Positions 1-15,177 are shown, numbered from the stretch's first letter. The stretch: DNA of 64,000 nt from Candidatus Latescibacterota bacterium (GCA_965208125.1 OZ242320.1:4992001-5056000), one strand, 5' to 3'. Numbers and translations: made by a program. The notes: generated by a model from the letters alone, not told the origin.

Positions 1-1987
1 ATCGCTAAATGCAGGCGAATATCGCGTTTATCGCGCGACCATTCACGATGTCGAATGCGCCCTTTACGCCCATCCATCGCATCTGCGTCCGGTCCGATTT
101 TTTGAAGGTGCCGAAGAAGATATTTTGCGCGCGCTTGGGCAAATTATGGACGCAATGGAGCAGGAATCGGGCATGAAATATCCCTATCCCGGTCTTTCTT
201 TGGTGGAAATCCCCTTTCATGTTCAATGGTATTACGAAGGCTGGGAAGAAAAGGGCGGTTTGACACAACCCGGCGTGTTGATGATTGAAGAAGATGTGTT
301 CATGAGGCAGCAATTTACCCGAGATTTTAAGCGTTCTCAAGAGCGCTCACGCGGCAATCGAGAACCCAAAGACATTAAAAAGGATCTTTTGGTACGCGCG
401 GTTTTTTCGACCTTTTTTTCCAGAGAAGGAAATTCGGGCAGACAGGGACAGCCTGGCGGGTTATTTCGCAGCCCTGTTGTTCAACTCTGGGCTTATGACA
501 AGCAGTTTGTGGGCGAACATCATTCCCTTCTCAAAAAGGGCATGCCCCTGTATCTCCAGAATGATTTGAGCACCGATATGACCTCTGCTTTTTATTCCAG
601 CCAACGACGCGGTGGTGGTGGCGATAGGGGGCGTGGCGGTCGCGATGGTCCCGGTGGTCGCGGTGGTCCCGGTGGTCCCGGTGGTCGCTTCGGATCGGGC
701 GGGGGATCGGGTGCTGCCTGGGACACGTTGATTGCGAAAATGCAACGCAAGTCATTTGCCGATTTGAATCCCGAAAAGCAAGCCGGCCTCTATCGCCAGG
801 TTCTCGACGCCAAGGGCCCCGCACTTTTTCAAATGATGGAATCTTTTTTGGGTGAGGAAACATTTCGCACGGTCTTAGACGACATAGACCACAATCACAA
901 ATACGAGGATATCGATTTTTCGACCTTTGAACGCGCTGCTGTGGGCGATACCACAGAAAGTGAAGAGAGCCAAAAATTGCAACGCCTCGTCAACGACTGG
1001 ATTTTTAGTACAGAAATCCCGGGCTATACCCTCACAAGGGTAAAAGCTCTGAAGATGGATGACGGTTTTGGGATGGTGGTCTATCAATTGATTCTGAGAA
1101 TTAAGAATAGCGAACCGGGCAGGGGATATGTGCAAATTACGGCTACGGGGCGGGGCGATGAGGCCGTAAAGGGCGTCGAGATTGAAGGTGGGCAGGAAAT
1201 TGAAGTTTCGATGGTTTTGTGGGAGCAGCCCTTCAGGGTGATGGTCGAACCCTTTTTTGCGCGCAATCGGCGCCCTCTGATGTCCCCCGTGCGCGTTCCC
1301 GAAGATGTCACAGAGGGTTTTCCGGTCGCTTATGTCAAAGACGTGACGGGCGAAGAGTCTGGTCCTCTTGAAATTATTGTAGATAATGATGACGATGGAT
1401 TTTCAATGCCCGTGCGGCGTGCAACGCGCTACTTCCGTCCGGGACTCAAAGGCGGCAACTGGCGCGAACAGGGCCTGCCAATGGCTTTCGGACGATTTGA
1501 GACAAATTATCGAAGAAAGTCTCAAGGGGATGGTGCACAGCCTGCGGTTTGGGCAGCGCAAATGCCCAGAGACGGCGAGTTTGATGTAAGTTTCTATTTT
1601 GTCGATCCCGCAATGGCCAGGCGCATTCGAATTGCATCGACCTTTACACTCACTATTTTGTATGGGGGCAAAGCCGATACGCTCGAAATAGAACGCGACC
1701 AGATGAAAGCGGGATGGAATTATCTGGGTCGATACAAATTTGCCGAGGGCGAAGAAGCCGCAGTCGAATTGTCTGACCGCGCAGAAGGGCGAGGGGGGCT
1801 CTATGCCGATGCCGTGCGATGGCGTTTTTTTGATCCGGAAAACCCCGATGCCTACGAAGACGAAATGCCCACCTTTATGTTTCGCGGTCGAGGTGGACCA
1901 GGTGGTGGGCCTGGGGGGCGCGGCGGCGGGGATGGTAGGCGAGGTCCCGGTGGTAACAGGGGTGGCGGCGGGTTGTTGGGATTTTAA
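1..1987 (+). CDS. 5'-truncated export-associated protein: M1-aminopeptidase-like domain plus C-terminal golvesin/xanthan-lyase CBD-like domain, with Gly/Arg-rich tracts
   Basis: The frame is open from position 2, so the true start lies outside the window. 'YPYPGLSLVEIP' and 'KGPALFQMMESFLGEETF' resemble the M1 fold. 'IIVDNDD...AVW...G.FDV..Y...GWNYLG.Y.F...V.LSD....ADAVRW' is the golvesin-C/CBD-like pattern. Confidence 0.6.
   Translation, partial: SLNAGEYRVYRATIHDVECALYAHPSHLRPVRFFEGAEEDILRALGQIMDAMEQESGMKYPYPGLSLVEIPFHVQWYYEGWEEKGGLTQPGVLMIEEDVFMRQQFTRDFKRSQERSRGNREPKDIKKDLLVRAVFSTFFSREGNSGRQGQPGGLFRSPVVQLWAYDKQFVGEHHSLLKKGMPLYLQNDLSTDMTSAFYSSQRRGGGGDRGRGGRDGPGGRGGPGGPGGRFGSGGGSGAAWDTLIAKMQRKSFADLNPEKQAGLYRQVLDAKGPALFQMMESFLGEETFRTVLDDIDHNHKYEDIDFSTFERAAVGDTTESEESQKLQRLVNDWIFSTEIPGYTLTRVKALKMDDGFGMVVYQLILRIKNSEPGRGYVQITATGRGDEAVKGVEIEGGQEIEVSMVLWEQPFRVMVEPFFARNRRPLMSPVRVPEDVTEGFPVAYVKDVTGEESGPLEIIVDNDDDGFSMPVRRATRYFRPGLKGGNWREQGLPMAFGRFETNYRRKSQGDGAQPAVWAAQMPRDGEFDVSFYFVDPAMARRIRIASTFTLTILYGGKADTLEIERDQMKAGWNYLGRYKFAEGEEAAVELSDRAEGRGGLYADAVRWRFFDPENPDAYEDEMPTFMFRGRGGPGGGPGGRGGGDGRRGPGGNRGGGGLLGF
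604..715 (+). repeat. Gly/Arg-rich low-complexity coding repeat (ggtggtccc/ggtggtcgc units)
   Basis: Tandem 9-bp units encode RRGGGGDRGRGGRDGPGGRGGPGGPGGRFGSGGGSG. Similar tracts occur at about 1884-1980 and 8050-8105. Confidence 0.85.
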
Positions 1988-1998
1988 TTTAAGGGAGG

Positions 1999-3072
1999 AT
2001 GGACGTGAAGTTTGATTTTTGCCCAAAATTATTGTTGATAATTACCCTTTGGGGGATAGTCGCCTGTGATCAACAGGCGGAACAGCGTACAGTTGATCTA
2101 ACTGTCCCCGTCACTGTTCAGTCCGTAGAGACGGGGACAATCGAATCGATTGTGACAGCTACCGGAACCCTCAGACCTGTGCGAGAAGCCCAGATCACAA
2201 CGGAGATTCGGGGGAGTCTGTACTGGAGCAAGGGGAGTAATAACCGCTTGCTCGCCAAAGGATCAGAGGTTAGAAGGGGGCAGACCATAGCCAGGCTCGA
2301 CAGCGATGAATGGGTTGTTGGCGCGCGGGTGGAAGCGCGTAAACTGGCGGTTGAAACAGCCAAGCGAACACTAAAGGAGCAGGAAACCCTGTTTAGCCGA
2401 CAACTGGCGACGGAAATGGACGTCGAAAGTGCGCGTAGAGCTTGGGCCGATGCAGAAGCCAATTATCAGGATGCCCTCATCAAGATCGATAAAACCAGGC
2501 TTTTAGCTCCCATACAGGGTGTGTTGTCGGAACTCGCGGATATTACGCAGGGAACGCTGGTGACGCCGAATACCGCAATTGCAAAAATTATGGATTATTC
2601 ACAGGTATTTGTGGATCTGAAAATTCCCAATGCCCAGATTATTAACGTGAAATTGGGTCAGGGCATCCGCGTGAGCAATTACGCTTTGCCCGAAGAAGTT
2701 TTTGAGGGCGAGATTGTTGAAATGGATCCGGCTATTGATCCGGTCACGCGCACGGTTCAGGTCGTCGGAATGGTCGATAATCCCGACTTGCTGTTGCGAG
2801 CGGGGATGTTTGTCAAAACAGAAATAGTCACGGAATCGCGGCAAAACGTCGTACTTATTGCGCGCAATCTCGTTTTGCGGCGGCGAAATCAGAAGGTCGT
2901 TTTCGTCGAAGAAGAAGGCCGCGCACAACAACGCGAAGTCGAAACAGGTCTGGAAGACCGAGACCGCGTGGAAATTGTAGTTGGCCTTGAACCGGGAGAC
3001 CAGTTGATCACGAGCAATTACGAAACGCTGAGGCCGCGCACCCGGGTGCGGGTCACGGGAGATAGACGATGA
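1999..3072 (+). CDS. RND efflux periplasmic adaptor (membrane fusion protein), probable lipoprotein
   Basis: Lipobox-like IVAC; 'ATGTLRP..EA.I..E..G'; 'APIQG', 'IDP.TRTV.V', 'L..GMFV', 'V.TG...VEI..GL.PGD'. RBS GGGAGG upstream. Confidence 0.92.
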   Translation: MDVKFDFCPKLLLIITLWGIVACDQQAEQRTVDLTVPVTVQSVETGTIESIVTATGTLRPVREAQITTEIRGSLYWSKGSNNRLLAKGSEVRRGQTIARLDSDEWVVGARVEARKLAVETAKRTLKEQETLFSRQLATEMDVESARRAWADAEANYQDALIKIDKTRLLAPIQGVLSELADITQGTLVTPNTAIAKIMDYSQVFVDLKIPNAQIINVKLGQGIRVSNYALPEEVFEGEIVEMDPAIDPVTRTVQVVGMVDNPDLLLRAGMFVKTEIVTESRQNVVLIARNLVLRRRNQKVVFVEEEGRAQQREVETGLEDRDRVEIVVGLEPGDQLITSNYETLRPRTRVRVTGDRR

Positions 3073-6000
3073 ATTTGCCGGAATTTTCAACGCGATATCC
3101 CGTGACGATTGCCATGGCGACTCTCGCGGTAGTGTTGCTTGGATGGATATCGTTAGATGGGTTGGGTACCGATCTCTTGCCCGATTTGCAGACGCCAGTC
3201 GTCACCATAGACCTGACAGCACCGGGCAAATCGCCTGTCGAGATCGAAGAAAGCTATACGCGCCGCCTCGAACGCGATGTGAGCACGATTAACGGCGTCA
3301 AGCGCGTCTATTCGATTACCCGTTCAGGACAGGCCGTGGTCATTGCAGAATTTGCCTGGGATGCGGACATAGATTACGGGTTGCTCGACGTGCAAAAAAG
3401 AGTGGGGCGCTATGCGGTCAATGAAGATGTATCACAGTTGGATGTGACGCGGGAAGATCCGCTCGCGCTTGCGGTGATGCGCATTGCGATTACAGCAGAC
3501 GAAAACACGGAACTCGACGCATTGATGGGTACGGTAGAATTGTTGATCAAACCCAAATTGGAAGCCCTTGACGGCGTGGCGTCTGCCGAGGTGGAAGGGG
3601 GAACGGAAAAGGAAGTGCGCGTTACACTCGATCCTTATTTGCTCGAAGCGTTTGGGCTTTCATCCGATGCGGTCATCAATCGCATCGCACAGGCAAATGC
3701 CGATGTATCCGGAGGTACGCTCAGAGAAAATCAGCAGTCATATCTGGTCAAAGCCCTCGGTCGCTTAGATGACATAAACGATGTGCGGGAAGTCATCGTG
3801 GGAGAAAGGCGCGGGGGAGGGGGTGTGGCTTCTGGAGACCGGGTTCCGGTACGCGTGCGCAACGTGGGCACAGTAGATCTGGAATATCAAGAGCGAGAAA
3901 CCATCGTGCGCCTCGACGGACGGGAATGCGTTGGCCTCGCCATTTACAAAGAAGCTGGCAGCAATACGGTCGCCGTGGTCAATACGGTATTGGATGCGAT
4001 AGACGATATCGAAGCAGACCTGAGCGGCATGCACTTCACAACCGTCGAAAACCAGGCGAGATTTGTCGAAGACGCCATAGGCGAAGTCGAAACATCTGCC
4101 ATTCACGGGGCGATTTTGGCAATTTTCGTGCTTTTGATCGCGTTGCGGAGTTGGACGGTGACGCTGGTGATCGGGTTGGCGATTCCCATTTCCGTATTGG
4201 CGACATTCACGCTTATGTACTTTGAGGGATTGACCCTGAATATTATGACGCTGGGCGGGTTGGCTCTGGGCGCAGGCATGCTTGTTGACAATGCCATTGT
4301 GGTCATAGAGAATATATACCGGCATCTGGAAAGCGGCGAGGATGCGCGCACAGCATCGAGCCGCGGCGCCTCCGAAGTCGGCGTGGCAATTCTGGCTTCA
4401 ACGCTGACGACCGTGGCTGTCTTCTTGCCCATTGTCTATTTGCAGGGGCTGGCGGGCAAACTCTTTGTGGATCAAGCCTGGACCGTTGCATTTTCGCTGC
4501 TGTCTTCTCTGGTTGTGGCAATGACGACAATTCCAATGCTAACATCGCGCATTTTTAGACGGATGAATACGACGCACAAAACGACTGTTCGGTCGGACAA
4601 ATACTATCGGTTTCTCAATGGTATTTTGAACCGCAAACCCATCATGCTCGGTGTCGTGTTGCTCATTCTGGGCGGCACTGGATATATCGCCCGCGAGTTG
4701 CAGACTGAATTTATCCCACGCGAAGATCAGGGGCTGTTTCAAATTGACCTCACATTGTCCGAAGGCTCGCGTGTGGAACTGAGCGATCAGGTCGCCCTGC
4801 ACGTCAAAGAGATTGTCGAAAGCGTTGGCGGGAGCGATGTGGCGCATGTGTACGCGCTGACCGGCCTTAACCCCGCTCGGATATCGACCGGAGGCGAACC
4901 GACGGGTCCCAATCGCGCGACCCTATCGGTGGCGTTGCACACACAGCGATCGCGCAGCGTCAGCGAATTGGTGCGCGACCTGGATCCCATTTTGAGTGCC
5001 ATGCCCGATATCGAAGTGAAATACAAGCTGCATGAAACCGCGCTTGAAGGCGTGATGGGAGGACAAGAAGCGCCCATTCAGGTCGAAGTGTCCGGGGAAA
5101 ATCTCGATATTTTGGCGCGTATCACCAAAGAACTTCAGGCGAGGATCGAGGACTTGCCCTCGGTGTATAATGTGCGCACGAGTTTTCAGGGTGGGCAGCC
5201 AGAAGTCGATCTGGCGATTCGCGATGAGGTAGCGGCGGCATTCGGATTGACCACCCAGACCATCAGCCGCACATTGGAAAGACAACTATCGGGTGAAGTT
5301 GCCGGCGAACTGTCAAAAGACCAGCGCACGAGGGATATCCGGGTAAAATATCGAGATGTCGATCTGCGCGAACTCCACACCATGCAAATCGAGGGATCAG
5401 ACGGCGCGATCCTGACATTGGGGGATATTGCTGAACTCAATATTATTGAAGGTCCCCGCGAAATTTTGAGAGAAGATCAGCGTCGCGTGGGGCGCATTAC
5501 GGGGTATCTCACGGAAGGGCGCATTTTAAGTGAAGCCGTTGCCGACGTACGCGCTACCATGCAGGAAATGGTTGTGCCGTCGGGATATCGCATTGAAATT
5601 GGCGGAGAAGAGCGCGAGCGCGCAGCGTCATTTGAAAGTCTCAAATTCGCACTCCTGCTTTCGATTGTGCTGGTCTATATGGTTATGGCATCGCTATTTG
5701 AATCCACACTCCATCCGTTCACAGTAATGTTTTCCGTTCCATTAGCCGGCGTCGGCGTGATATTTGGATTCTATCTTTTGGGCGAACCCCTCAGTGTGAT
5801 GGCCTATATTGGCATTATTATGCTGGGCGGTATTGCGGTCAACGATGCGATTATTCTCGTAGATCGCATCAACCAGCTCAGGCTGGCTGGCCTGACGTTG
5901 CGAGAAGCGATTCTACAGGGCGGCCAGGACCGCTTGCGCCCCATTATGATGACGAGTGCGACGACTATTCTCGCCCTGCTGCCCATGGCACTCGGCTTTG

Positions 6001-6134
6001 GCGAGGGGGCAAAATTGCGCGCGCCTATGGCTATTGCCGTCATTGCTGGCCTGGTGACATCGACATTGATGACTTTACTTGTGATACCCACCATGTATGA
6101 ACTGATAGATCGCCTTCGGGGGAAATCCGCGTGA
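3069..6134 (+). CDS. RND efflux permease subunit (AcrB/MdtB-like)
   Basis: 1021 aa. TM4 'GMLVDNAIVVIENI', TM10 'GIAVNDAIILVD', TM11 'RLRPIMMT'. ATGA overlap with the MFP gene. Confidence 0.95.
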   Translation: MNLPEFSTRYPVTIAMATLAVVLLGWISLDGLGTDLLPDLQTPVVTIDLTAPGKSPVEIEESYTRRLERDVSTINGVKRVYSITRSGQAVVIAEFAWDADIDYGLLDVQKRVGRYAVNEDVSQLDVTREDPLALAVMRIAITADENTELDALMGTVELLIKPKLEALDGVASAEVEGGTEKEVRVTLDPYLLEAFGLSSDAVINRIAQANADVSGGTLRENQQSYLVKALGRLDDINDVREVIVGERRGGGGVASGDRVPVRVRNVGTVDLEYQERETIVRLDGRECVGLAIYKEAGSNTVAVVNTVLDAIDDIEADLSGMHFTTVENQARFVEDAIGEVETSAIHGAILAIFVLLIALRSWTVTLVIGLAIPISVLATFTLMYFEGLTLNIMTLGGLALGAGMLVDNAIVVIENIYRHLESGEDARTASSRGASEVGVAILASTLTTVAVFLPIVYLQGLAGKLFVDQAWTVAFSLLSSLVVAMTTIPMLTSRIFRRMNTTHKTTVRSDKYYRFLNGILNRKPIMLGVVLLILGGTGYIARELQTEFIPREDQGLFQIDLTLSEGSRVELSDQVALHVKEIVESVGGSDVAHVYALTGLNPARISTGGEPTGPNRATLSVALHTQRSRSVSELVRDLDPILSAMPDIEVKYKLHETALEGVMGGQEAPIQVEVSGENLDILARITKELQARIEDLPSVYNVRTSFQGGQPEVDLAIRDEVAAAFGLTTQTISRTLERQLSGEVAGELSKDQRTRDIRVKYRDVDLRELHTMQIEGSDGAILTLGDIAELNIIEGPREILREDQRRVGRITGYLTEGRILSEAVADVRATMQEMVVPSGYRIEIGGEERERAASFESLKFALLLSIVLVYMVMASLFESTLHPFTVMFSVPLAGVGVIFGFYLLGEPLSVMAYIGIIMLGGIAVNDAIILVDRINQLRLAGLTLREAILQGGQDRLRPIMMTSATTILALLPMALGFGEGAKLRAPMAIAVIAGLVTSTLMTLLVIPTMYELIDRLRGKSA

Positions 6135-9100
6135 CACTTGCTGGTATTGCCGTTCGGCGGCCCGTGACTACGGCCATGTTTTTTATAGGTCTGGCTATTT
6201 TAGGTGCAATTTCACTGGATCGGTTGCCCGTTCAGATATTTCCCGAACTCGTTCGCCCAGAAGTCTTTGTCGCGCTTACTCAGCAGGGCTACTCGCCCGA
6301 ACAAGTCGAGCGGAATCTGGTGATGCCCGTCGAGAGAGAGGTCGGCAAGCTCGAAGGTATTGAGGCATACGAATCCTTTTCGCGCCAGAACAGTGGCGGG
6401 GTACGCATTTCTTACGCGCCCAATACAGATATGAAATTTGCCCTGCTGCAACTCGAGAGCCGCATCACGCGCCTGCAACCGCTTTTGCCCGAAAGAACGC
6501 GGGTCAATGTACAGCGCTTTGATGCCTCTGATCTGAGTTCCTCAGTGATGCAAATCCACGTGTTGGGCGAAGGCGATATAAACTGGTTGCGCGAATTTGC
6601 CGAGGAGAAAATTAGACCGGAATTGGAAGCGGTCGATGGCGTTGTCAACGCGCAGGTCCTGGGCGGGCAAAGGACAGCTATTGAAATTATTGTCGATCCA
6701 TTGATGTTGCAAGCGCACCAGCTTTCGATGTCCGATGTTCGCAATCGCATCAATGCGTTTAATACGCGGCGGCAATATCTCGGACGTGTGTATGACGGCG
6801 ACCAGGCTTATGCGGTCAGTATTCAGGGCCAATTTACAGACCTCGTGCAAATCCGCAGAGTTGTCATTAAACCCGAATTGCCCCTGCACCTTGGCGACAT
6901 TGCCAAAATTCGCTACGGCCTTCAGGAGCGTACAGACCTGCAACGCATCAATGGCAAAGCCGCCGTCGGCATTCGCATTCAAAAAGACGATGAAGCCAAT
7001 CTGATCGAACTTGCAGGAGAACTCGAAGACACCATCGAACGAATAAATGGCGATCTCGCCTATGAAAATATCCAGCTCGTGATCAGCCAGAATCTGGCAG
7101 AAATTATGAACGAAGCCCTCAATTTCCTCAAACGGGCCGCTGTTGTCGGGGGATTGCTCGGGCTTTTTGTTTTGTTCTTATTTTTGAGAAATCTGCGCTT
7201 TGTCGCTGTTTTGCTCCTCGCCATTCCGTGTTCTTTACTGCTCACATTTAATCTGATGTATATGTGGGATCTCAGTTTGAACGTGCTCTCGATGTGCGGC
7301 CTCGCGCTTGCAGTTGGCATGTTGATGGACAATGGCATTGTGGTCATGGAAAATATTTTTAAGCATTTTGAACAGGGCAAATCCCCCAAAGAAGCCGCAA
7401 AAGCCGGAACCGATGAGGTCGCACGCGCCGTTGTTGCGGCAACCGCGACTACGATTACTATTTTTATACCCGTAGTTTTTATTCAAAGCGACTTCCAGGA
7501 TATCTTGAGAGAATTCGCGCTGTCCATCGCCTTTCCTCTGCTTGCCTCTCTGCTCGTAGCCCTCACACTCGTGCCCGCTCTGGCATCAAAAACCCTCTCC
7601 CTCGCATCGCGACCACCAACGGGAACAGGCGTATTGATCGAGATGTACACGGTGTGCCTCAAAGCGGGCTTGCGGCACAGAATTAGCGTGTCACTGGGTA
7701 TTGTCGGCGCGCTTGTCATCACGCTGATCATTTCTTTTTTCTTTATGCTGCAACAGGATATTCGCCGCGAGGAAAGCCGTTTTACCGTCTATATCAGCAT
7801 GCCCGAAGGCACGACCATAGAAGCCCTCGATGCTGTTGTTGGCGAAATTGAAAGTGCTGTGCGAGATCTCAAAGGTGTGGATCGCTTTACGACCAGTATC
7901 AGCGAAACCCAGGCGAGTATCAATGTGGAGCTTTTGCCCTTATCCGAACGTCCCGACCTGATTTCTGTCGATCTCATCAAAGAGAATCTCGAAGAGTCGT
8001 TCGAAGATGTCCAAAACGCGGTTGTGAGTTATGAGGCCATCGCACGCACAGGCAGAGGAGGTGGTGGTGGTCGAGGTGGTGGGGGAGGTGGAGGTATTCG
8101 GGGCACCCGTCAAGCTACTGGTGGATTCAACCTGGAAGGGGGCGCGCCTTCGGAAATGGCTGTGATTCGCGGCTATGATTTTACAGTGCTTCAAATGCTT
8201 GCCGACGATCTCGTCTATCGCCTCGAAGAACTGGAGGAAATCGATCCCAATAGCGTAAGAGCCGATGCAGAACGCGGCGCATCTGAAGTGCATGTTTTGC
8301 CCGATGAAGAAGTGATGTTTGATCGGCGATTGCAGGTGCGCCAGGTGCTCAATGCCGTATCCGACGCCAATCCGCGGGGTGCGCGATCCAATATTTCATT
8401 TCTCACACCCGAAGGCACTGAAATCCCGATTGATGTTCGCAATGTCGAAGACCCCGAAGAAGAGGGAGAAGGGATTGCGGGATTGAGACAAACACCGATA
8501 CTGGGTTCAGGGGGGACGTACATTCCCCTTGTAGAAGTTTCGCATGTGCGCCGGGATCAGGGCAGGAGCATGATTTTGCGCACGGATCAATCGCGGCGCG
8601 TAATCGTATCCTATAATTTCGCCGAAGAAATTTTGCAATCTCAGCCTCTGCTGGAAGCCTCTCGCGCTTATGTGCAAGATGTGGTTTCCGAAATGGTGCT
8701 GCCCGAAGGGTATAGCATCGAAATGATCGAGGCAGAGGAAGAGACGATTTATTACTGGATGATGGGCATTGCCGCGGTGTTGATTTATATGATTTTGGCC
8801 TCTTTGTTTGAATCGCTTTCCGCGCCTTTGATTATTTTGTGTACGTGGCCCGCAGCAATTATTGGATCGTGCTGGGCACTGATCTTATCGGGGACGGGAT
8901 TGACCTCGCAAGAAGCGCCAATGGCACTGTTGGGGCTTATTGTTTTGAGCGGTATTGCCGTCAACAACGGGATCGTGCTGATCGATGCGATTGAAACCCT
9001 TCGCCGCCGCGGGTTCAGGCGAGAACGCGCGGTACTCACGGCGAGCCGGTCGCGCGTGCGTCCTGTTTTAATGACTTCGGCAACCACCATTTTGGGCATG

Positions 9101-10855
9101 TTGCCTCTGGCACTCATATTTGGCGGCGATTACGAAATTTGGCCGCCCTTTGCGATTGTGGTAATCGGAGGGCTGGCGGTTTCAACAGTTTCCACTCTCG
9201 TATTTATTCCCGTGGTGTACATGGGAATTGATCAGACCAAAGCCTGGCTTACGGATATTGGCTGGTTCGGGATCGTATTGGGAACCGCAGCAGCCGCGGG
9301 ATTGACGTATTGGGTTGACGATTATTACCAGAGTTTGTTCTGGACCTGTCTTTTGGCATTGCCAGCCTGGATGTTGTGTATGGGCGTGATCTGGATAGTG
9401 CAACGCATTTATCGCGCGCGTATGGCTTCTCTTGCTGAGATTGGCAATATTGAACATCTCGAAATTCGCAATCTGACCAAAATTTACGGTGCGCCGGGGC
9501 GATTTAAGCACGAATGGGATCGCTTTAAGCGGCGTCATCAGCGCCTTTTAGAGCGCGGGCAGGTATTGATAGATAAAAAGGCGATTAAGGACAGTTTGTG
9601 GTGGAAGTTACCACTTCTGGCACTTCTGATCTATTTGGAAACCTATTTTGAACAGGGAGCCTGGATATTTTTGGCGGGGCTTGCTATATGGGGCCTCGTG
9701 CATCACCTCGTGCTATGCGCGGCAGCTTTGCGCGATTTTCAGATTGAGAACAGATGGATATCACAAATCGCCCGATTGATTTTGCCGCTGGTCTTTATCG
9801 CCTTTATCCATTGGCGTTTGGAACTTCTGTCTTTGACCATCGCCACTACTGCGATTTACTTACTCTATCGCATCATCGGATTTTTGGCAAATCGCGTTGC
9901 ACGAGGTCGCATCGATCCCGAACATATATCGGGCAAATTAGGCCCTGTTAAAAGCATCGTGTACCGCGGTGCTGCAGCCGTTCCCCTGATTGGTGTTCCG
10001 CGCCCACAATTCCAGGCTCTCGGAGGTGTAAGTCTCGATATTCCGCGCGGCATGTTTGGGCTTTTGGGACCCAATGGCGCGGGCAAAACCACGCTGATGC
10101 GAATTGTCTGTCGGGTGTTGTCGTCAAATTACGGGTCGGTACTCGCCAATGGCAAAATACCGCTTACACATCGGAATATGCAGGGGGTGATTGGATATTT
10201 GCCGCAGCACTTTGGCCTGTATCTGCACATGTCTGCGTATAATTATCTGGAGTATCGCGCGCTTTTAGAGGGATTTAAGGATGGGGTAGCGCGGCGCAAG
10301 CGCGTTCAGGAATGTCTGGAGCAGGTCAATCTGTGGGATAGGCGAGACGATCTGATTGGGTCGTTCTCCGGCGGCATGAAACAGCGCGTGGGCATTGCAC
10401 AAACCCTGTTGCACTTGCCGCAGATTATCGTAGTGGATGAGCCGACAGCAGGATTGGATCCGCTCGAGCGGATTCGGTTCAGAAATTTGCTGGCGCGATT
10501 TAGCCAGGAAAAAATCATTATTTTTTCTACGCATATTGTCGAAGATATTGCGGGCAGTTGTAACCGATTGGCTGTACTGAATCACGGTAAGGTGCTCTAC
10601 ACGGGAACCCCGATTGAAATGCGCGATTTGGCGCGCGATAGGGTGTGGGAGGCTCTGCTGCCAGATCCGCGTTTTGAAGCGCTGGAACGCGACCTGGATA
10701 TGATTACACATGTGCGCGTGCCCGATGGGATTCGGGTGCGATTTCTCGCTACTGATCCCATCCCAGAAGCGCGTGCTGTTGCGCCCACCCTCGAAGATGC
10801 GTACCTTTATCTTTTGCGACATGGCGATGAATACAAACAGGCTAACATGGCGTGA
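6131..10855 (+). CDS. RND permease fused to extra TM helices and a C-terminal ABC ATPase domain
   Basis: The first ~1030 aa are RND-like ('GMLMDNGIVVMENI', 'RVRPVLMT'). The C-terminal part has Walker A GPNGAGKT, Q-loop YLPQ, signature FSGGMKQ, Walker B IIVVDE, D-loop PTAGLD and H-loop STH in one uninterrupted frame. Confidence 0.9.
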   Translation: MTLAGIAVRRPVTTAMFFIGLAILGAISLDRLPVQIFPELVRPEVFVALTQQGYSPEQVERNLVMPVEREVGKLEGIEAYESFSRQNSGGVRISYAPNTDMKFALLQLESRITRLQPLLPERTRVNVQRFDASDLSSSVMQIHVLGEGDINWLREFAEEKIRPELEAVDGVVNAQVLGGQRTAIEIIVDPLMLQAHQLSMSDVRNRINAFNTRRQYLGRVYDGDQAYAVSIQGQFTDLVQIRRVVIKPELPLHLGDIAKIRYGLQERTDLQRINGKAAVGIRIQKDDEANLIELAGELEDTIERINGDLAYENIQLVISQNLAEIMNEALNFLKRAAVVGGLLGLFVLFLFLRNLRFVAVLLLAIPCSLLLTFNLMYMWDLSLNVLSMCGLALAVGMLMDNGIVVMENIFKHFEQGKSPKEAAKAGTDEVARAVVAATATTITIFIPVVFIQSDFQDILREFALSIAFPLLASLLVALTLVPALASKTLSLASRPPTGTGVLIEMYTVCLKAGLRHRISVSLGIVGALVITLIISFFFMLQQDIRREESRFTVYISMPEGTTIEALDAVVGEIESAVRDLKGVDRFTTSISETQASINVELLPLSERPDLISVDLIKENLEESFEDVQNAVVSYEAIARTGRGGGGGRGGGGGGGIRGTRQATGGFNLEGGAPSEMAVIRGYDFTVLQMLADDLVYRLEELEEIDPNSVRADAERGASEVHVLPDEEVMFDRRLQVRQVLNAVSDANPRGARSNISFLTPEGTEIPIDVRNVEDPEEEGEGIAGLRQTPILGSGGTYIPLVEVSHVRRDQGRSMILRTDQSRRVIVSYNFAEEILQSQPLLEASRAYVQDVVSEMVLPEGYSIEMIEAEEETIYYWMMGIAAVLIYMILASLFESLSAPLIILCTWPAAIIGSCWALILSGTGLTSQEAPMALLGLIVLSGIAVNNGIVLIDAIETLRRRGFRRERAVLTASRSRVRPVLMTSATTILGMLPLALIFGGDYEIWPPFAIVVIGGLAVSTVSTLVFIPVVYMGIDQTKAWLTDIGWFGIVLGTAAAAGLTYWVDDYYQSLFWTCLLALPAWMLCMGVIWIVQRIYRARMASLAEIGNIEHLEIRNLTKIYGAPGRFKHEWDRFKRRHQRLLERGQVLIDKKAIKDSLWWKLPLLALLIYLETYFEQGAWIFLAGLAIWGLVHHLVLCAAALRDFQIENRWISQIARLILPLVFIAFIHWRLELLSLTIATTAIYLLYRIIGFLANRVARGRIDPEHISGKLGPVKSIVYRGAAAVPLIGVPRPQFQALGGVSLDIPRGMFGLLGPNGAGKTTLMRIVCRVLSSNYGSVLANGKIPLTHRNMQGVIGYLPQHFGLYLHMSAYNYLEYRALLEGFKDGVARRKRVQECLEQVNLWDRRDDLIGSFSGGMKQRVGIAQTLLHLPQIIVVDEPTAGLDPLERIRFRNLLARFSQEKIIIFSTHIVEDIAGSCNRLAVLNHGKVLYTGTPIEMRDLARDRVWEALLPDPRFEALERDLDMITHVRVPDGIRVRFLATDPIPEARAVAPTLEDAYLYLLRHGDEYKQANMA

Positions 10856-11555
10856 GTTGCTTTTCTTTGTCGGCAAAATGCACAGCCTGAGCATGAAAAT
10901 CGTGTTTCACCGCAAAATGATTTTCATGTTTGGCGGGATTGTTGCGTATTACGCAATTTTGTACGCGATTGCAATCTGGCGTCCGGGTGAAGGGCTTTCA
11001 GTCGAACAAGCCCTCCATGTATTGGTCGAAGTACCGGGCACGGTGCTTGCGATTTACCTGACGATGGATCTGGTGTCGGGGGAGAGGGATAAGGATACGC
11101 TTGAAATTCTGTTCAGCACGGCGATCAGCCACTACGCGACGTGGGCCGTGAGAATTGTGTCAATCAGTGCTGCGCTATTTGCCACGCTGATGGCAATGAG
11201 TACGATTTCCTACTATTTTTTTGCGGAGTTTCCCTATATCCTGGGGGGATTGAATGCCTGTATTCCCGCCTTTTTTATGGTGGGAGCCACATTTTTGTTT
11301 TCTGTTTTGTTCCGCAGTGGCAATGCGGCTGGCATGCTCGCCGTTGGGCTTTTGATTGCGATTTTGCTTTCTACCGAGATATTTGAGGATACATCGTATT
11401 ACCTTTTTCTCAAGCCATTTGATCCACCTTCAGATTTAGATACCAGCCTGTGGGTAAATCGCGTGGTCTTAAACCGCGCTGGCATTGCTATTCTGGGTAT
11501 CTTGTTCATTTTTCTGGCTCTGAGACGAATGATAGAGCGCGAAAAGCTGCTGTGA
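10827..11555 (+). CDS. ABC-2 type transporter permease subunit
   Basis: About 6 hydrophobic segments and an EAA-like 'GERDKDTLEILFST'. The ATG at 10827 overlaps the end of the preceding gene; the exact start is uncertain. Confidence 0.8.
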   Translation: MNTNRLTWRELLFFVGKMHSLSMKIVFHRKMIFMFGGIVAYYAILYAIAIWRPGEGLSVEQALHVLVEVPGTVLAIYLTMDLVSGERDKDTLEILFSTAISHYATWAVRIVSISAALFATLMAMSTISYYFFAEFPYILGGLNACIPAFFMVGATFLFSVLFRSGNAAGMLAVGLLIAILLSTEIFEDTSYYLFLKPFDPPSDLDTSLWVNRVVLNRAGIAILGILFIFLALRRMIEREKLL

Positions 11556-11583
11556 TGGCGTGCTGTTGAAAAATCCGAGAGCT

Positions 11584-11638
11584 AAAACCCCTGTGAATGA
11601 GTACAACTGGTAGTTTGCTATTCATAGGGATTTTTTTT
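11584..11638 (+). terminator. Probable intrinsic terminator of the export operon
   Basis: Stem CCCTGTGAAT...ATTCATAGGG followed by T8. Confidence 0.65.
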
Positions 11639-11685
11639 AATTTGGTGGTTATCGACATCAAGACATTGGCCGGAAGGATTCAAGA

Positions 11686-11990
11686 ATGAACAAAAACGTC
11701 GTCTATTATGAGACCATAACGCCCTGGTCAACCATTCTTCTCAGATAGACGATACAGCAATCGCATTTGGTTATTACTTTACTGGTAAGGAAAAGATATT
11801 ATTCAGTACAATTGTGTATGTCGAGATTTTCATTTATGATCGAAAAAACCCTACCATGCGCTTCAGTATTAATGCGTTAGAAGGACCTCCTGTTCTTTTA
11901 GAAAGACGTTGGGCTTTGGGTTCGCTGATCAGATTGAGATTGAATGAAGAATACCTTACCCGTTATAAACTCAAGCGAGAAAAAAATTGA
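11686..11990 (+). pseudogene. Possible frameshifted small gene (~100 codons), function unknown
   Basis: GGAAGGA plus ATG at 11686 opens a 20-codon frame. An adjacent frame is open from about 11712 to TGA 11990. One extra base near 11712 would join them. Confidence 0.3.
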
Positions 11991-12172: not shown

Positions 12173-12835
12173 ATGCAGCCACCGCAACCGCAACAAGAAG
12201 ACATACTGGTCTGGTTCCTCAAGGTGTGGGGCCAGATTGAAGCAAATTATATCAGAATTCTCACGGGCTTTGGCATTGCCATTGTCGCTGCGCTGATTGT
12301 CCTGTTTTTCTATCGCGGACAAACACAACGCGCTGAGGCGGCTCGTACAGCTCTCGGAGACGTTTATATCGCACTTTATGAAGGACGCGTTGAAGATGCA
12401 CTTGCCGTATCGCAGGAAGTAATAGAAACCTATGCGGGTGAAGCGGAAGCAGGCGAAGCATTGATGGCACTGGCCAATTTGCATTATGACGAAGGACGCA
12501 TCGCAGAGGCCCGCATATATTTTCAACAATATCTGGATGAATATCCAACAGACGGACCATTGGGTTATGGTGCCTGGTCGGGTTTGGCATCATGTCTTGA
12601 AAATGAAGAAAAATTTGCAGAGGCAGGTCAACAGTTCGCAACCTTTGCCGAAGCGCACCCCAGATCGTCATTTGCGCCGATAGCCCTGAAAGAAGCCGGC
12701 AGATGTTACGAACTCGGCAAAATGCCTCAGCAAGCGAGTGAGGCGTATCAAAAGATCGTCAACGAATACGCTAAGTCATCCGTCGCAAGATTTGCACGCG
12801 GGCAATTGAACATGATGGGTGTCGAGATAGATTAG
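12173..12835 (+). CDS. Membrane-anchored TPR protein (YfgM/CpoB-like)
   Basis: Single N-terminal TM helix followed by TPR repeats (e.g. 'A.ALMALANLHY.EG...EA...FQ..L.EYP'). RBS AGGAG. Confidence 0.8.
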   Translation: MQPPQPQQEDILVWFLKVWGQIEANYIRILTGFGIAIVAALIVLFFYRGQTQRAEAARTALGDVYIALYEGRVEDALAVSQEVIETYAGEAEAGEALMALANLHYDEGRIAEARIYFQQYLDEYPTDGPLGYGAWSGLASCLENEEKFAEAGQQFATFAEAHPRSSFAPIALKEAGRCYELGKMPQQASEAYQKIVNEYAKSSVARFARGQLNMMGVEID

Positions 12836-12998: not shown

Positions 12999-13026
12999 AT
13001 ACGGCATAAGATACATTATGTAAACT
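12999..13026 (+). other. dif: dif site (XerC/XerD chromosome dimer resolution site)
   Basis: ATACGGCATAA-GATACA-TTATGTAAACT has the 11-6-11 layout. The right arm matches the B. subtilis XerD-type arm TTATGTAAACT; the left arm ends in GCATAA like the E. coli XerC arm. It is intergenic and lies at an apparent skew inversion. Confidence 0.88.
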
Positions 13027-13104
13027 TAATGCAAAAAACAACCTGAAACTGCTGTGTAATGCCCATCCTTGTATCAAGGCTTCGTTGATACCCATTATTT
13101 CATT

Positions 13105-13725
13105 TTACTGGTGTTTGTGGTGCCGATTTTCAACATCCGCCTGTGCAAGTCCAAGAGCGCGTTGATATAATAGATCTGACAGCCGCTGGTTCTCTTCGCG
13201 CAGTTTCTGAATCGTTTTAGCGCTTTTCTGAGCGGTTATTTCCACTTCTTTTTGTTGTCTGCGTAGCCAATTTACGTCTTGTTCTACTTGTTTTTCCCTT
13301 TCTTTTGCCATATTTAGCTCTTCCCGCGTTTTTTCCAGTTCTTCTTTCAGTGCCCGTGCTTCAGTCCATCCAGAGGCAGATGACGCCTCTAATTGTGCAT
13401 TGCGTTCGTTCATACTGCGAATTTCCGCTCTCAGTTCCCTTTCAACTGTTTCGATCGCTGCCAATTTTCCCAATTGCTGTTGTTGGGCTTCAAATTCGGA
13501 TTTTTCGACGAGAATTTGATCGGGGTTATGGCTCATATTGATCTGATTTTCCATCATTTTTTTTCCATGTTTTTTCCTAAATAATTCCTCAATTTCCTCT
13601 TTGGATATTCGCCAGGTCCCATTCCATTTTTCAGGATTTAAAAACCCCTTATTAATATAATTTCTTATTGTTTTATCAGTAACTTTAAGGATTTTTGCAG
13701 CTTCAGAGATTCCATAATTTTCCAT
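13105..13725 (-). CDS. MerR/excisionase-like HTH protein with long C-terminal coiled coil
   Basis: 'YGISEAAKILKVTDKTIRNYINKG.L...WRI..EEI' is HTH_17-like, followed by ~130 aa rich in E/K/Q/R heptads. RBS AGGAGG. Confidence 0.8.
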   Translation of the reverse strand: MENYGISEAAKILKVTDKTIRNYINKGFLNPEKWNGTWRISKEEIEELFRKKHGKKMMENQINMSHNPDQILVEKSEFEAQQQQLGKLAAIETVERELRAEIRSMNERNAQLEASSASGWTEARALKEELEKTREELNMAKEREKQVEQDVNWLRRQQKEVEITAQKSAKTIQKLREENQRLSDLLYQRALGLAQADVENRHHKHQ

Positions 13726-13773
13726 TTTATCCTCCTTTTTTAAGTTCTAAATTTTTTACATTTAATTTCCATT

Positions 13774-13802
13774 AAATTAGTAATATTTTTCTATATCGTC
13801 AA
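13774..13802 (-). promoter_or_regulatory. Putative sigma70 promoter of the HTH/coiled-coil gene
   Basis: Minus strand TTGACG-N17-TAATTT. Confidence 0.5.
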
Positions 13803-14085
13803 GGGATGAAATAACGAAAAATGGCGCACAAATAACGAATTTTTGTTATTTTTCAAAGAAAGACACATTTTAACACAGATTTTTAAAAAATAAATACCCT
13901 GCAAAATAAAAACGCTGAATATGGCAAAAAACAAGGAGAAGTCTCAAAAAATCTGGGACAAAAAACTAAGTGTAAAAAAATAGGATCGAAACTAACGATA
14001 AAAAGCAGGAGAGAAGCTCAATTTTAAAAAAACAAGATCCAGGAGAAAAAACTAACATTTTAGACAAAAAGAGAGGAGAAAACAG

Positions 14086-15177
14086 TTGGAAAACTTAAAA
14101 AAAACCCCACTAAACGAAATACACCGCAAAACCAACGCCCGAATGGTTCCATTTGGCGGCTGGGAAATGCCGGTTCAATACGAGGGAATAGTCGCGGAAC
14201 ATCAAGCGGTGCGATCACAAGCTGGTCTTTTTGATGTCTCACACATGGGCCAATTTGAATTTAAAGGCAGAGGTGCCAGAAAACTGGTCCAATTTCTAAC
14301 GGCCAATGACATAGACCGCATCGGTATTGGGCGCGGGCAGTATTCTCTATTTCTCAATAAAAATGGCGGCGCTATAGACGACATCATCGTTTACCGCCTC
14401 GGTGAGACGACCTACCTGATCGTAGTAAACGCGGCAAATATCGATAAAGACTGGAAACATGTCCTGGCAGTCGCAAAATCCTTTGACAATGTTCAAGTAA
14501 CTAATAGAAGTGAAGAATTCGCCCTTCTCGCGCTTCAAGGACCAAAAGCAGAGGCTGCACTCTCCCCTATCGCAAATCGGAATCTCTCTGAAATCGGTTT
14601 TTTTCGCATTCGCAGAGCAGAACTCGCGGGAATACCCGTTTATATTGCCCGCACGGGATATACTGGTGAAGGAATGAATGGATTTGAGATATTTACACGA
14701 GCAGAAAATGCTACGGCAATCTGGAATGCCCTCATCGCATCACCCGACGTATCACCTGCAGGATTGGGCGCACGAGATACGCTCCGTATCGAGGCCTCTC
14801 TTCCTCTCTACGGGCAGGAACTCGACGAGGCAACAACACCATTAGAAGCCGGACTGGATATATTCGTCTCAAAAGCGGGTGGATTCTCTGGTGCCGAGGC
14901 CCTTGAAAAACAGCGTGTAGATGGCCTGAGAAAAACTCTTGTTATGATCGAAATGATCGACCGCGGTATCCCCCGCCACGGTTATGAAATCCTGGACTGT
15001 TCGGGAAATTCAATAGGCGAAGTCACCAGCGGCACAGCCGCGCTCTATCTCAAAAAAAATATCGCAATGGGTTATGTTCCACCCAACCATTCAGAAATTG
15101 GAACAGAACTCGCCATTGCAATCCGAAATCGCACCCTCAAAGCGCGGGTTGTGTCCAGGCCTTTTTTCAAGCGATAA
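14086..15177 (+). CDS. gcvT: Glycine cleavage system T protein (aminomethyltransferase)
   Basis: 'KKTPL...H....MVPFGGWEMPVQY', 'GLFDVSHMG', 'RTGYTGE..GFE', 'GLGARDTLRIEA'. Confidence 0.97.
   Translation: MENLKKTPLNEIHRKTNARMVPFGGWEMPVQYEGIVAEHQAVRSQAGLFDVSHMGQFEFKGRGARKLVQFLTANDIDRIGIGRGQYSLFLNKNGGAIDDIIVYRLGETTYLIVVNAANIDKDWKHVLAVAKSFDNVQVTNRSEEFALLALQGPKAEAALSPIANRNLSEIGFFRIRRAELAGIPVYIARTGYTGEGMNGFEIFTRAENATAIWNALIASPDVSPAGLGARDTLRIEASLPLYGQELDEATTPLEAGLDIFVSKAGGFSGAEALEKQRVDGLRKTLVMIEMIDRGIPRHGYEILDCSGNSIGEVTSGTAALYLKKNIAMGYVPPNHSEIGTELAIAIRNRTLKARVVSRPFFKR

Follow-up and report, generated by a model that had tools for sequence, protein, structure and literature searches.

Can the two main efflux engines of Gram-negative bacteria, the resistance-nodulation-division (RND) permeases and the ATP-binding cassette (ABC) transporters, which are regarded as distinct machines drawing on different sources of energy, be built into one? 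This question is raised by a 64,000-nucleotide stretch of a Candidatus Latescibacterota genome (GCA_965208125.1, OZ242320.1:4992001-5056000; hereafter the window, to whose first letter coordinates refer unless a locus is named), in which one gene (P0001; 6131..10855, + strand) joins a complete RND permease to an ABC ATPase by way of six additional transmembrane (TM) helices. The product, a protein of 1574 amino acids (aa), is a genuine hybrid exporter subunit that was fixed anciently.

Architecture of the fusion gene

The frame is open for all 1574 codons, and both Pfam domains fall on the same chain, as a sequence-only reading of this DNA had proposed: ACR_tran (PF00873) scores 600.9 bits (cut-off 28) in two stretches from residue 5 to ~1030, and ABC_tran (PF00005) scores 90 bits (cut-off 25) at residues 1299-1440. 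The RND domain, of the AcrB/MdtB-like kind, occupies aa 1-1035 (6131..9235, +). It is followed by TM13 and TM14 (aa 1045-1101; 9263..9433, +), recognised by hydropathy and as helices 15-36 and 39-71 of an AlphaFold2 model, and then by strand beta1 and the A-loop tyrosine of the nucleotide-binding domain (NBD; aa 1109-1119, HLEIRNLTKIY; 9455..9487, +). An insertion within the NBD (9500..9901, +) consists of a basic cytoplasmic helix (aa 1124-1141) and TM15-18 (aa 1149-1257), and the remaining NBD (beta2 onward, with every catalytic motif) together with a C-terminal domain fills 10010..10852 (+). NCBIfam holds no model specific to the fusion family, and the names of its members in public protein records are generic.

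A real gene present in several phyla

The window lies within a single-contig genome of 5.75 Mb, and a single metagenome-assembled genome could in theory hold a lost stop, a frameshift or a chimeric assembly that joins neighbouring genes; otherwise, we found nothing in favour of such an artefact. Across 41 genomes (the window's own and 40 relatives), the fusion was recovered as one full-length match in 36 and in two pieces in two fragmented assemblies (G023 and G024), while three (G021, G026, and G036) gave ordinary RND matches only. In two of the 36 (G005 and G002), a single TAA was flagged within the match; both have a frame open for >1570 aa around the linker (i.e., the segment carrying the six additional helices), and the G005 open reading frame (ORF) is intact at 1570 aa. 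A linker-only profile (alignment A4), run on 168 genomes of the phylum Latescibacterota, detected the linker in 84, including 34 of the 52 high-quality genomes. In 73 of these 84, the open frame around it reaches 1500 aa or more; the other 11 are assemblies of 170-820 contigs.

Beyond the phylum, the best 120 matches to residues 1040-1574 in a search of 5.8 billion proteins all carry PF00873 and PF00005, and most are 1550-1610 aa long; source names among them include Gemmatimonadetes, Latescibacteria, Acidobacteria, KSB1, Calditrichaeota, and Mangrovibacterium. Public Candidatus Latescibacterota records have C-terminal modules 97% and 93% identical to that of the window, and the fusion is present in the isolates Marivirga tractuosa, M. 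sericea, Draconibacterium mangrovi, Maribellus maritimus, Parabacteroides massiliensis, and Bacteroides sp. 224. Contigs of other public sequencing runs (labelled as sponge or marine metagenomes, 90-99% alike) span the fusion junctions. One from run X2 covers 8990-9625, contigs of RNA library X15 cover 9290-9942 and 9949-10540, and no indel at 9200-10100 is found among the rows listed of the contig indel table. Parts of the fusion gene are covered by contigs from RNA libraries X15 and X16; such contigs cannot show transcription, strand or operon structure.

The uninterrupted junction is thus kept in independent genomes (isolates among them) and in contigs of other runs, and the first NBD strand stands upstream of four TM helices (see below), which excludes a simple joining of two genes. 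An artefact is therefore, in our judgement, extremely improbable.

Homologues are fused as well. When the linker was searched against 1.84 billion cluster representatives, 47 matches were obtained at E<=0.001, with no relative outside the fusion family; the linker sits at ~residue 1025-1315 in all 16 matches of 1550-1590 aa and ahead of the RND part in none of the 47. Nine of these matches were read, and eight proved to be fragments, a chimera or fused proteins lacking their N-terminus. The ninth, P0147 (526 aa), begins with M at TM13 and is the sole candidate among the nine for a standalone linker plus NBD, i.e., the one possible split form; its two nearest metagenome relatives are fused (1565 and 1573 aa).

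Several irregular frames were seen along the way. In two fragmented assemblies, the linker is spread over two frames, at G088:C46:105501-106203 (open frames of 1140 and 435 aa) and at G053:C278:1440-2248 (with one TAG); both break near the boundary of beta1 and the insertion, and they may be sequencing errors, pseudogenes or natural split forms. Five genomes from one genus of the phylum (G160 and G165-G168) have a stop-free frame of 1768-2612 aa around the linker, which may reflect a further fusion or stop-poor flanks. As for habitat, window positions 5900-11700 share words with runs X1-X20 at 0.13-0.42, and the matching runs are labelled as sponge or marine metagenomes and metatranscriptomes or carry coded organism names; judging from these runs and from the 90-99% alike contigs (X1, X2, X15, and X16), close relatives seem to occur in sponges.

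An NBD interrupted by membrane helices

The C-terminal module (residues 1031-1574) was modelled with AlphaFold2 from a 46-row alignment (predicted local distance difference test (pLDDT) 85, predicted TM-score (pTM) 0.68). Hydropathy and model agree on six TM helices, at ~1045-1066, 1069-1101, 1149-1172, 1176-1200, 1208-1230, and 1233-1257. Only two extra helices had been counted in the sequence-only reading; hydropathy, the model and the scoring matrix described below raise the count to six and place four of them within the NBD. The modelled order is TM13, TM14, the strand at 1109-1119, the helix at 1124-1141, four TM helices, a helix at 1271-1283, and the NBD from the strand at 1294. Loop charges are consistent with this topology under the positive-inside rule, with TM13 and TM14 bringing the chain back to the cytoplasm.

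The NBD is thus not contiguous: directly after its A-loop tyrosine it is interrupted by the basic helix and four TM helices, and ~170 residues lie between the beta1/A-loop segment (aa 1109-1119) and beta2, which begins at aa 1294. That HLEIRNLTKIY is the NBD's own first strand follows from its score, its placement across the family and its position in superposed structures. A beta1 scoring matrix, for which 37 standalone ABC-2 ATPases supplied the N-termini, gives it 24.0 bits, and the next best window in the whole protein -0.3. In 41 of 46 family members, the highest-scoring matrix window is that of the aligned beta1 site and precedes Walker A by 193-262 residues; the exceptions are P0017, P0030, P0045, P0051, and P0118. 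Solved NBDs superpose with their residue 1-3 on model residue 76-80 and resume beyond the insertion; 1vpl_A, for example, aligns 234 of its 238 residues over model range 78..533 (Z 26, root-mean-square deviation 2.2 Å).

The intact Walker A and B motifs, signature, D-loop and H-loop named in the sequence-only reading are all present, and the 46-sequence family alignment shows them to be invariant: Walker A G1313-T1320 (with K1319), signature S1413-G-G, Walker B D1436-E1437, D-loop G1441-L-D1443, and H-loop H1468, along with Q-loop Q1359, A-loop Y1119, and K1117. Linker residues W1129, W1158, Y1278, and P1285 are likewise invariant in this alignment. By its sequence, the fused NBD is an ABC-2-type domain: GldA (TIGR03522; 168.5 bits, cut-off 402.6) and DrrA score highest among NCBIfam models, both under cut-off, and the closest solved chains are ABCA4/7/1, TM_1403, and NosF.

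Searches with the membrane part returned little. A Protein Atlas search with the linker gave a best score of 0.79, under any useful level; fold searches with the C-terminal model matched the NBD alone, so that the TM part was barely probed by them; and hhalign found no homology (6 aligned columns) between the linker and the small six-helix permease encoded next to the fusion.

A conserved gene cluster around the fusion

The fusion gene is embedded in a cluster of conserved order: a free ATPase, an ABC-2 permease with a periplasmic domain, a TolC-like outer membrane factor (OMF; in Bacteroidota), a membrane fusion protein (MFP), an unfused RND permease (RND1), the fusion, and the small permease. 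The sequence-only reading correctly held that the operon starts outside the window, and it recognised the MFP and the second RND subunit as neighbours; it did not detect that the NBD is split, nor the genes that make up the upstream half, i.e., the free ATPase and the giant permease. The former (P0167, 297 aa; L091:9590-10483) lies upstream of the window just before the latter (P0123; L091:10496-13987), whose start is ~1.5 kb upstream of the window and whose 3' part (2..1987, +) encodes the last 661 residues of a 1163-aa protein. The MFP, a periplasmic adaptor (1999..3072, +), matches HlyD_D23 (91 bits) and RND_mfp (TIGR01730; 190.6 bits, cut-off 94.9), and RND1 (3069..6134, +; 1021 aa) matches ACR_tran with 769 bits. 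The MFP stop overlaps the RND1 start as ATGA, and the RND1 stop the fusion start as GTGA. It is from such gene overlaps that we infer co-transcription of the cluster genes.

The small permease (10821..11555, +; 244 aa, six helices) had been given a start at 10710. The junction sequence and the N-termini of 30 homologues (31-sequence alignment) make an ATG at 10821 or 10827 the most likely start instead. Its reading frame thus begins 35 nt before the fusion gene ends, and the two are translationally coupled. Its earlier designation as an ABC-2 permease stands in part: the Pfam match is under cut-off (ABC2_membrane_3, 19.2 bits, cut-off 31.6), and the fold of its AlphaFold2 model (pLDDT 80.8, pTM 0.80), which resembles a type-V (ABC-2) transmembrane domain (TMD), favours the assignment. 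All Foldseek matches listed for this model are type-V TMDs (PmtCD 6xjh_A, ABCG25, NosY, CcmB, and ABCA1), matched over the full length and weak (E ~0.016-0.4, TM-scores of 0.5-0.6). A complex prediction of the C-terminal module with the small permease scored 0.52 against 0.45 for a control, and carries no weight for or against binding.

Upstream, P0123 is composed of an N-terminal ABC-2-like multi-TM domain (seven helices by eye), a large domain, and Golvesin_C. The large domain has a weak match to Peptidase_M1 (E 3.9e-4, under cut-off) and no HExxH motif, and is probably a non-catalytic M1-like binding domain. The P0123 equivalent in Marivirga is made up of two ORFs (595 and 506 aa), with a match to ABC2_membrane_4 (22.2 bits, under the 27-bit cut-off) and Golvesin_C. 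P0167 and the fused NBD share 45% identity across 274 residues (E 4e-81), and P0167 begins with IRISNLTKIYG, the same strand that precedes the insertion in the fusion; given this identity and the common first strand, the fused NBD is a paralogue of the cluster's free ATPase.

Gene order was compared at 37 loci from Latescibacterota, Bacteroidota, and Calditrichaceae that contain the C-terminal module in full. MFP, RND1 and fusion occur together in 33, the four remaining contigs ending within the fusion gene, and RND1 is directly upstream of the fusion in all 33 loci with enough DNA. The small permease is found downstream in 33 of the 37; three contigs end too early, and L027 has ~590 nt left with no match. 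A Golvesin_C-type protein is encoded farther upstream in 17 of the 37 loci. In Marivirga, a TolC-like OEP gene stands between the Golvesin_C-type protein and the MFP, and farther upstream lie an ATPase, an ABC2_membrane_4-like protein and an M1-like/Golvesin_C protein. L050 (Krumholzibacteria) and four Bacteroidota loci (L064, L067, L070, and L086) are likewise arranged as ATPase, P0123-like, gap, MFP, RND1, fusion, and P0123-like genes occur only alongside RND genes in this locus sample.

Downstream of the cluster, a tetratricopeptide repeat (TPR) protein (12173..12835) resembles YbgF/CpoB (TIGR02795, 59 bits, under cut-off) and was not counted in the system because it is syntenic only in close relatives. 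Farther on lies the glycine-cleavage T protein gene gcvT (14086-15177; GCV_T, 307.7 bits). Between these two genes, the guanine-plus-cytosine content falls to 0.36 (13001-14500; ~0.52 in the cluster) around a 206-aa ORF (13105..13725, -).

The RND part and its putative proton-path residues

The solved chain closest to the fused RND is MdtB (9lyq_B, E 2.2e-73), and the NCBIfam model RND_permease_2 scores 489 bits, under its cut-off of 1250. Residues D400-N401 in TM4, N945-N946 in TM10 and R977 in TM11 are invariant in the fused RND (46-sequence alignment). The AcrB proton relay is formed by D407-D408-K940 (Asp-Asp in TM4 and Lys in TM10) together with an Arg in TM11; measured against it, the fused RND keeps D400 and R977, with N401 in place of the second Asp and N945 in place of the TM10 Lys, and thus lacks a complete AcrB-type relay.

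Such a loss could suggest that ATP has replaced the proton drive in the fused RND. We reject this idea, for which nothing speaks after a comparison of 15 RND ORFs of the same genome (one ends before TM10/TM11 in the alignment), in which the TM4 "DN", TM10 "VNN" and TM11 "RP" of the fusion are common to five unfused RNDs; RND1 combines "DN" with "VND". Because five unfused paralogues have it, the D-N/N-N pattern is a mark of the subfamily and not of the fusion.

The periplasmic part of the fused RND contains a Gly/Arg/Pro-rich low-complexity insert (aa 629-675; 8015-8155), and long Gly/Arg/Pro-rich inserts are also found in P0123 (aa 694-748 and 1116-1163); the inserts in both proteins are of the type GRGGGGGRGGGGGGG. 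A Gly-rich stretch at the RND insert site is kept in the family consensus, and there is none at that place in RND1.

Evolution of the fusion

For a maximum-likelihood phylogeny, we used 20 fused RND parts, 20 RND1 sequences and 12 further RND paralogues from the window's genome (52 in all). Fused parts and RND1 sequences fall into two separate clades, both with a Shimodaira-Hasegawa-like approximate likelihood ratio test (SH-aLRT) support of 100. The two clades mirror each other in internal topology, and the 52-sequence tree does not show them as sisters. Single clades with mirrored topologies indicate a single origin of the fusion and its co-inheritance with RND1. One long paralogue was omitted from the tree; it lies outside the window at G000:C1:537993-542087 as an RND frame of ~1365 codons from stop to stop and is followed by an OEP gene (542400-543644).

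Between phyla, identity is highest in the NBD (50-56%), with lower values for RND1 (37-44%) and then the fused RND (30-36%) and the lowest (~20-32%) for linker and small permease. As the catalytic motifs are invariant in the 46 sequences and the NBD is the best conserved part between phyla, we consider that the ATPase has been kept.

Comparison with known systems

The component parts are of known kinds; it is their combination and the TM insertion in the NBD that are, as far as we found, undescribed. The full-text literature that we searched (subscription journals, TCDB, and InterPro notes lay outside the search) describes neither an RND-ABC fusion nor the split NBD nor this cluster, and so holds nothing by which the architecture would already be well characterised.

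Among known systems, MdtABC(-TolC) of Escherichia coli is similar in having two paralogous RND genes side by side behind an MFP gene. MdtB is also the closest solved chain, and the two RND lineages here are co-inherited, so that the pattern of MdtBC, two paralogous RND genes in one operon that are inherited together, is found here. The Mdt subunits, in contrast, have no extra TM helices or NBD; the RND parts here score 281-401 bits against NCBIfam MdtB/MdtC cut-offs of 1584-1774; they have D-N in TM4 and N for the TM10 Lys; and a heterotrimer here would be an analogy to MdtB2C, whose stoichiometry is 2:1.

MacAB-TolC resembles the present cluster, which likewise combines an ABC ATPase with an MFP and, in Bacteroidota, with a TolC-like OMF for presumed export across the envelope. 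MacB, a type-VII ABC transporter, has a periplasmic domain of its own but lacks an RND part, whereas the cluster here has a putative TMD partner of predicted type-V fold, an NBD of the ABCA/GldA/DrrA kind and RND subunits as a putative periplasmic conduit. The type-V exporters (NosFY, PmtCD, ABCG/ABCA, Wzm-Wzt, and GldAFG) are closest to the NBD in sequence and fold, the small permease model matches their TMDs, and the NBD and permease genes overlap here. GldA itself differs, with the fused NBD failing its curated cut-off (168.5 vs 402.6 bits), and no type-V exporter is known to us in which TM helices break up the NBD or an RND permease is joined to it. That the ABC ATPase fold tolerates a large inserted domain is known from the Rad50/SMC coiled coil and the UvrA insertion domains. 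There, a soluble insertion separates Walker A from the signature, whereas here four TM helices lie between the A-loop and strand beta2, which to our knowledge is an undescribed variation of the ABC fold.

Possible mechanisms of export

AcrB-like RND permeases act as trimers with an MFP and an OMF, and ABC NBDs hydrolyse ATP only as dimers. The reading we favour, to which we would give about an even chance, is that an ABC-2 exporter is tethered to a heteromeric tripartite RND pump for two-step, doubly energised export. RND1 is the constant partner of the fusion, which by analogy suggests an RND1-fusion heterotrimer. RND1 and the fused RND would assemble like MdtB2C and, with MFP and OMF, would form a proton-driven tripartite pump. 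The fused NBD would pair with a second NBD, either that of a second fused chain (two fused to one RND1 per trimer) or the free paralogue P0167 (one fused to two RND1), and the NBD pair would power the type-V permease or permeases. By means of ATP, the ABC-2 module may lift an amphiphilic or lipid-like substrate from the cytoplasm or the inner leaflet; the tethered RND pump would then pick it up at the interface of membrane and periplasm and expel it across the outer membrane. In such an export driven by both ATP and the proton gradient, the fusion would enforce proximity and stoichiometry. A tripartite context is suggested by the MFP upstream in 33 of the 37 loci, by the OEP gene in the Marivirga cluster and by six OEP genes elsewhere in the window's own genome. 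The earlier proposal, in which an ABC-2 transporter has an RND complex tethered to it, agrees with what is conserved, i.e., the constant RND1 and small permease, the co-inherited RND lineages and the type-V fold; its suggestion of a polymer or protein as the substrate found no support.

Several points weigh against this reading. The trimeric symmetry of an RND pump does not match the dimeric symmetry of an ABC transporter, and both stoichiometries given above are hypothetical. The six extra TM helices found no match in the fold searches, which barely probed them, and could be an anchor, a coupling element or a translocation path. The TM4 and TM10 residues are unlike those of AcrB, so that proton coupling is assumed from the likeness to paralogues. 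P0167 and the fused NBD both have the full consensus motifs, with no asymmetry pointing to a heterodimer, and between the small permease and the P0123 TMD there is no detectable homology (hhalign probability 2.6%). As the sequence-only reading had noted, no TolC-like OMF gene is visible in the window's own cluster, and this holds with the upstream flank included. Finally, the fusion is rare in Bacteroidota, an even sampling of 401 genomes having yielded four carriers with the seed genome counted among them (six candidates were scored per genome, and some carriers may have been missed).

The conserved partners can also be arranged differently. In a stoichiometry variant of the tethered exporter, the fused NBD and P0167, with the small permease and the P0123 TMD, would make up a single heterodimeric ABC-2 transporter, and the one fused subunit of each trimer (RND1 x2 : fusion x1) would dock one asymmetric exporter with a large periplasmic domain. 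Two paralogous NBDs and two differing type-V-like TMDs are indeed present wherever the whole cluster could be seen (the window's own genome, Marivirga, L050, L064, L067, L070, and L086), the confinement of P0123-like genes to RND loci fits as well, and MdtB2C is a precedent for a 2:1 ratio. Most ABC-2 exporters are homodimers, however, neither NBD has a degenerate site, and the two TMDs are not detectably related, so we regard this variant as possible but rather doubtful. A different role for the ATPase is conceivable if the split NBD and the six TM helices act on the RND TM domain itself, with NBD closure gating, resetting or assisting the RND conformational cycle and the small permease being accessory. 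An NBD anchored on both sides by TM helices straight after RND TM12 would suit force transmission in the membrane, and the invariant linker tryptophans, tyrosine and proline, along with a linker that stands only behind the RND part in every full-length match, point the same way. Yet a type-V permease encoded by an overlapping neighbour gene is, as a rule, the TMD that belongs to the NBD, the putative proton-path residues are the same as in unfused paralogues, and we know of no ABC NBD that drives a non-ABC transporter; an ATP-gated or ATP-assisted RND therefore appears unlikely.

Each half retains all the features needed for working alone, and the join might thus serve co-localisation only, with two independent pumps co-expressed or co-targeted and no hand-off of substrate or energy. 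What argues against mere co-localisation is a single fused clade that extends over at least six phyla with the same partners, an elaborate six-helix linker conserved in pattern, and the finding of no confirmed split form among the linker matches read, and we hold it to be quite improbable. A bolder form of the tethered exporter is that ATP hydrolysis and the proton gradient are combined on one polypeptide, the split NBD being wired to the RND permease via TM13-18, as a new class of machine; this we advance tentatively, as something that may well prove wrong. If true, ATP-driven extraction or gating and proton-driven extrusion would be obligatorily coupled in one tripartite complex, and the RND1/fusion heterotrimer would reconcile the three-fold symmetry of RND pumps with the two-fold symmetry of ABC transporters.

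Implications for bacterial efflux

An RND-ABC fusion conserved in several phyla is a natural "Rosetta stone", speaking for the view that an ABC-2 exporter and an RND pump can act as one unit. It offers a concrete system for the long-discussed two-step export, in which an inner-membrane pump feeds a tripartite pump, and shows how a three-fold symmetric pump might be matched with a two-fold symmetric motor. With cultured hosts in Marivirga, Draconibacterium, Maribellus and Parabacteroides, the system is experimentally accessible.

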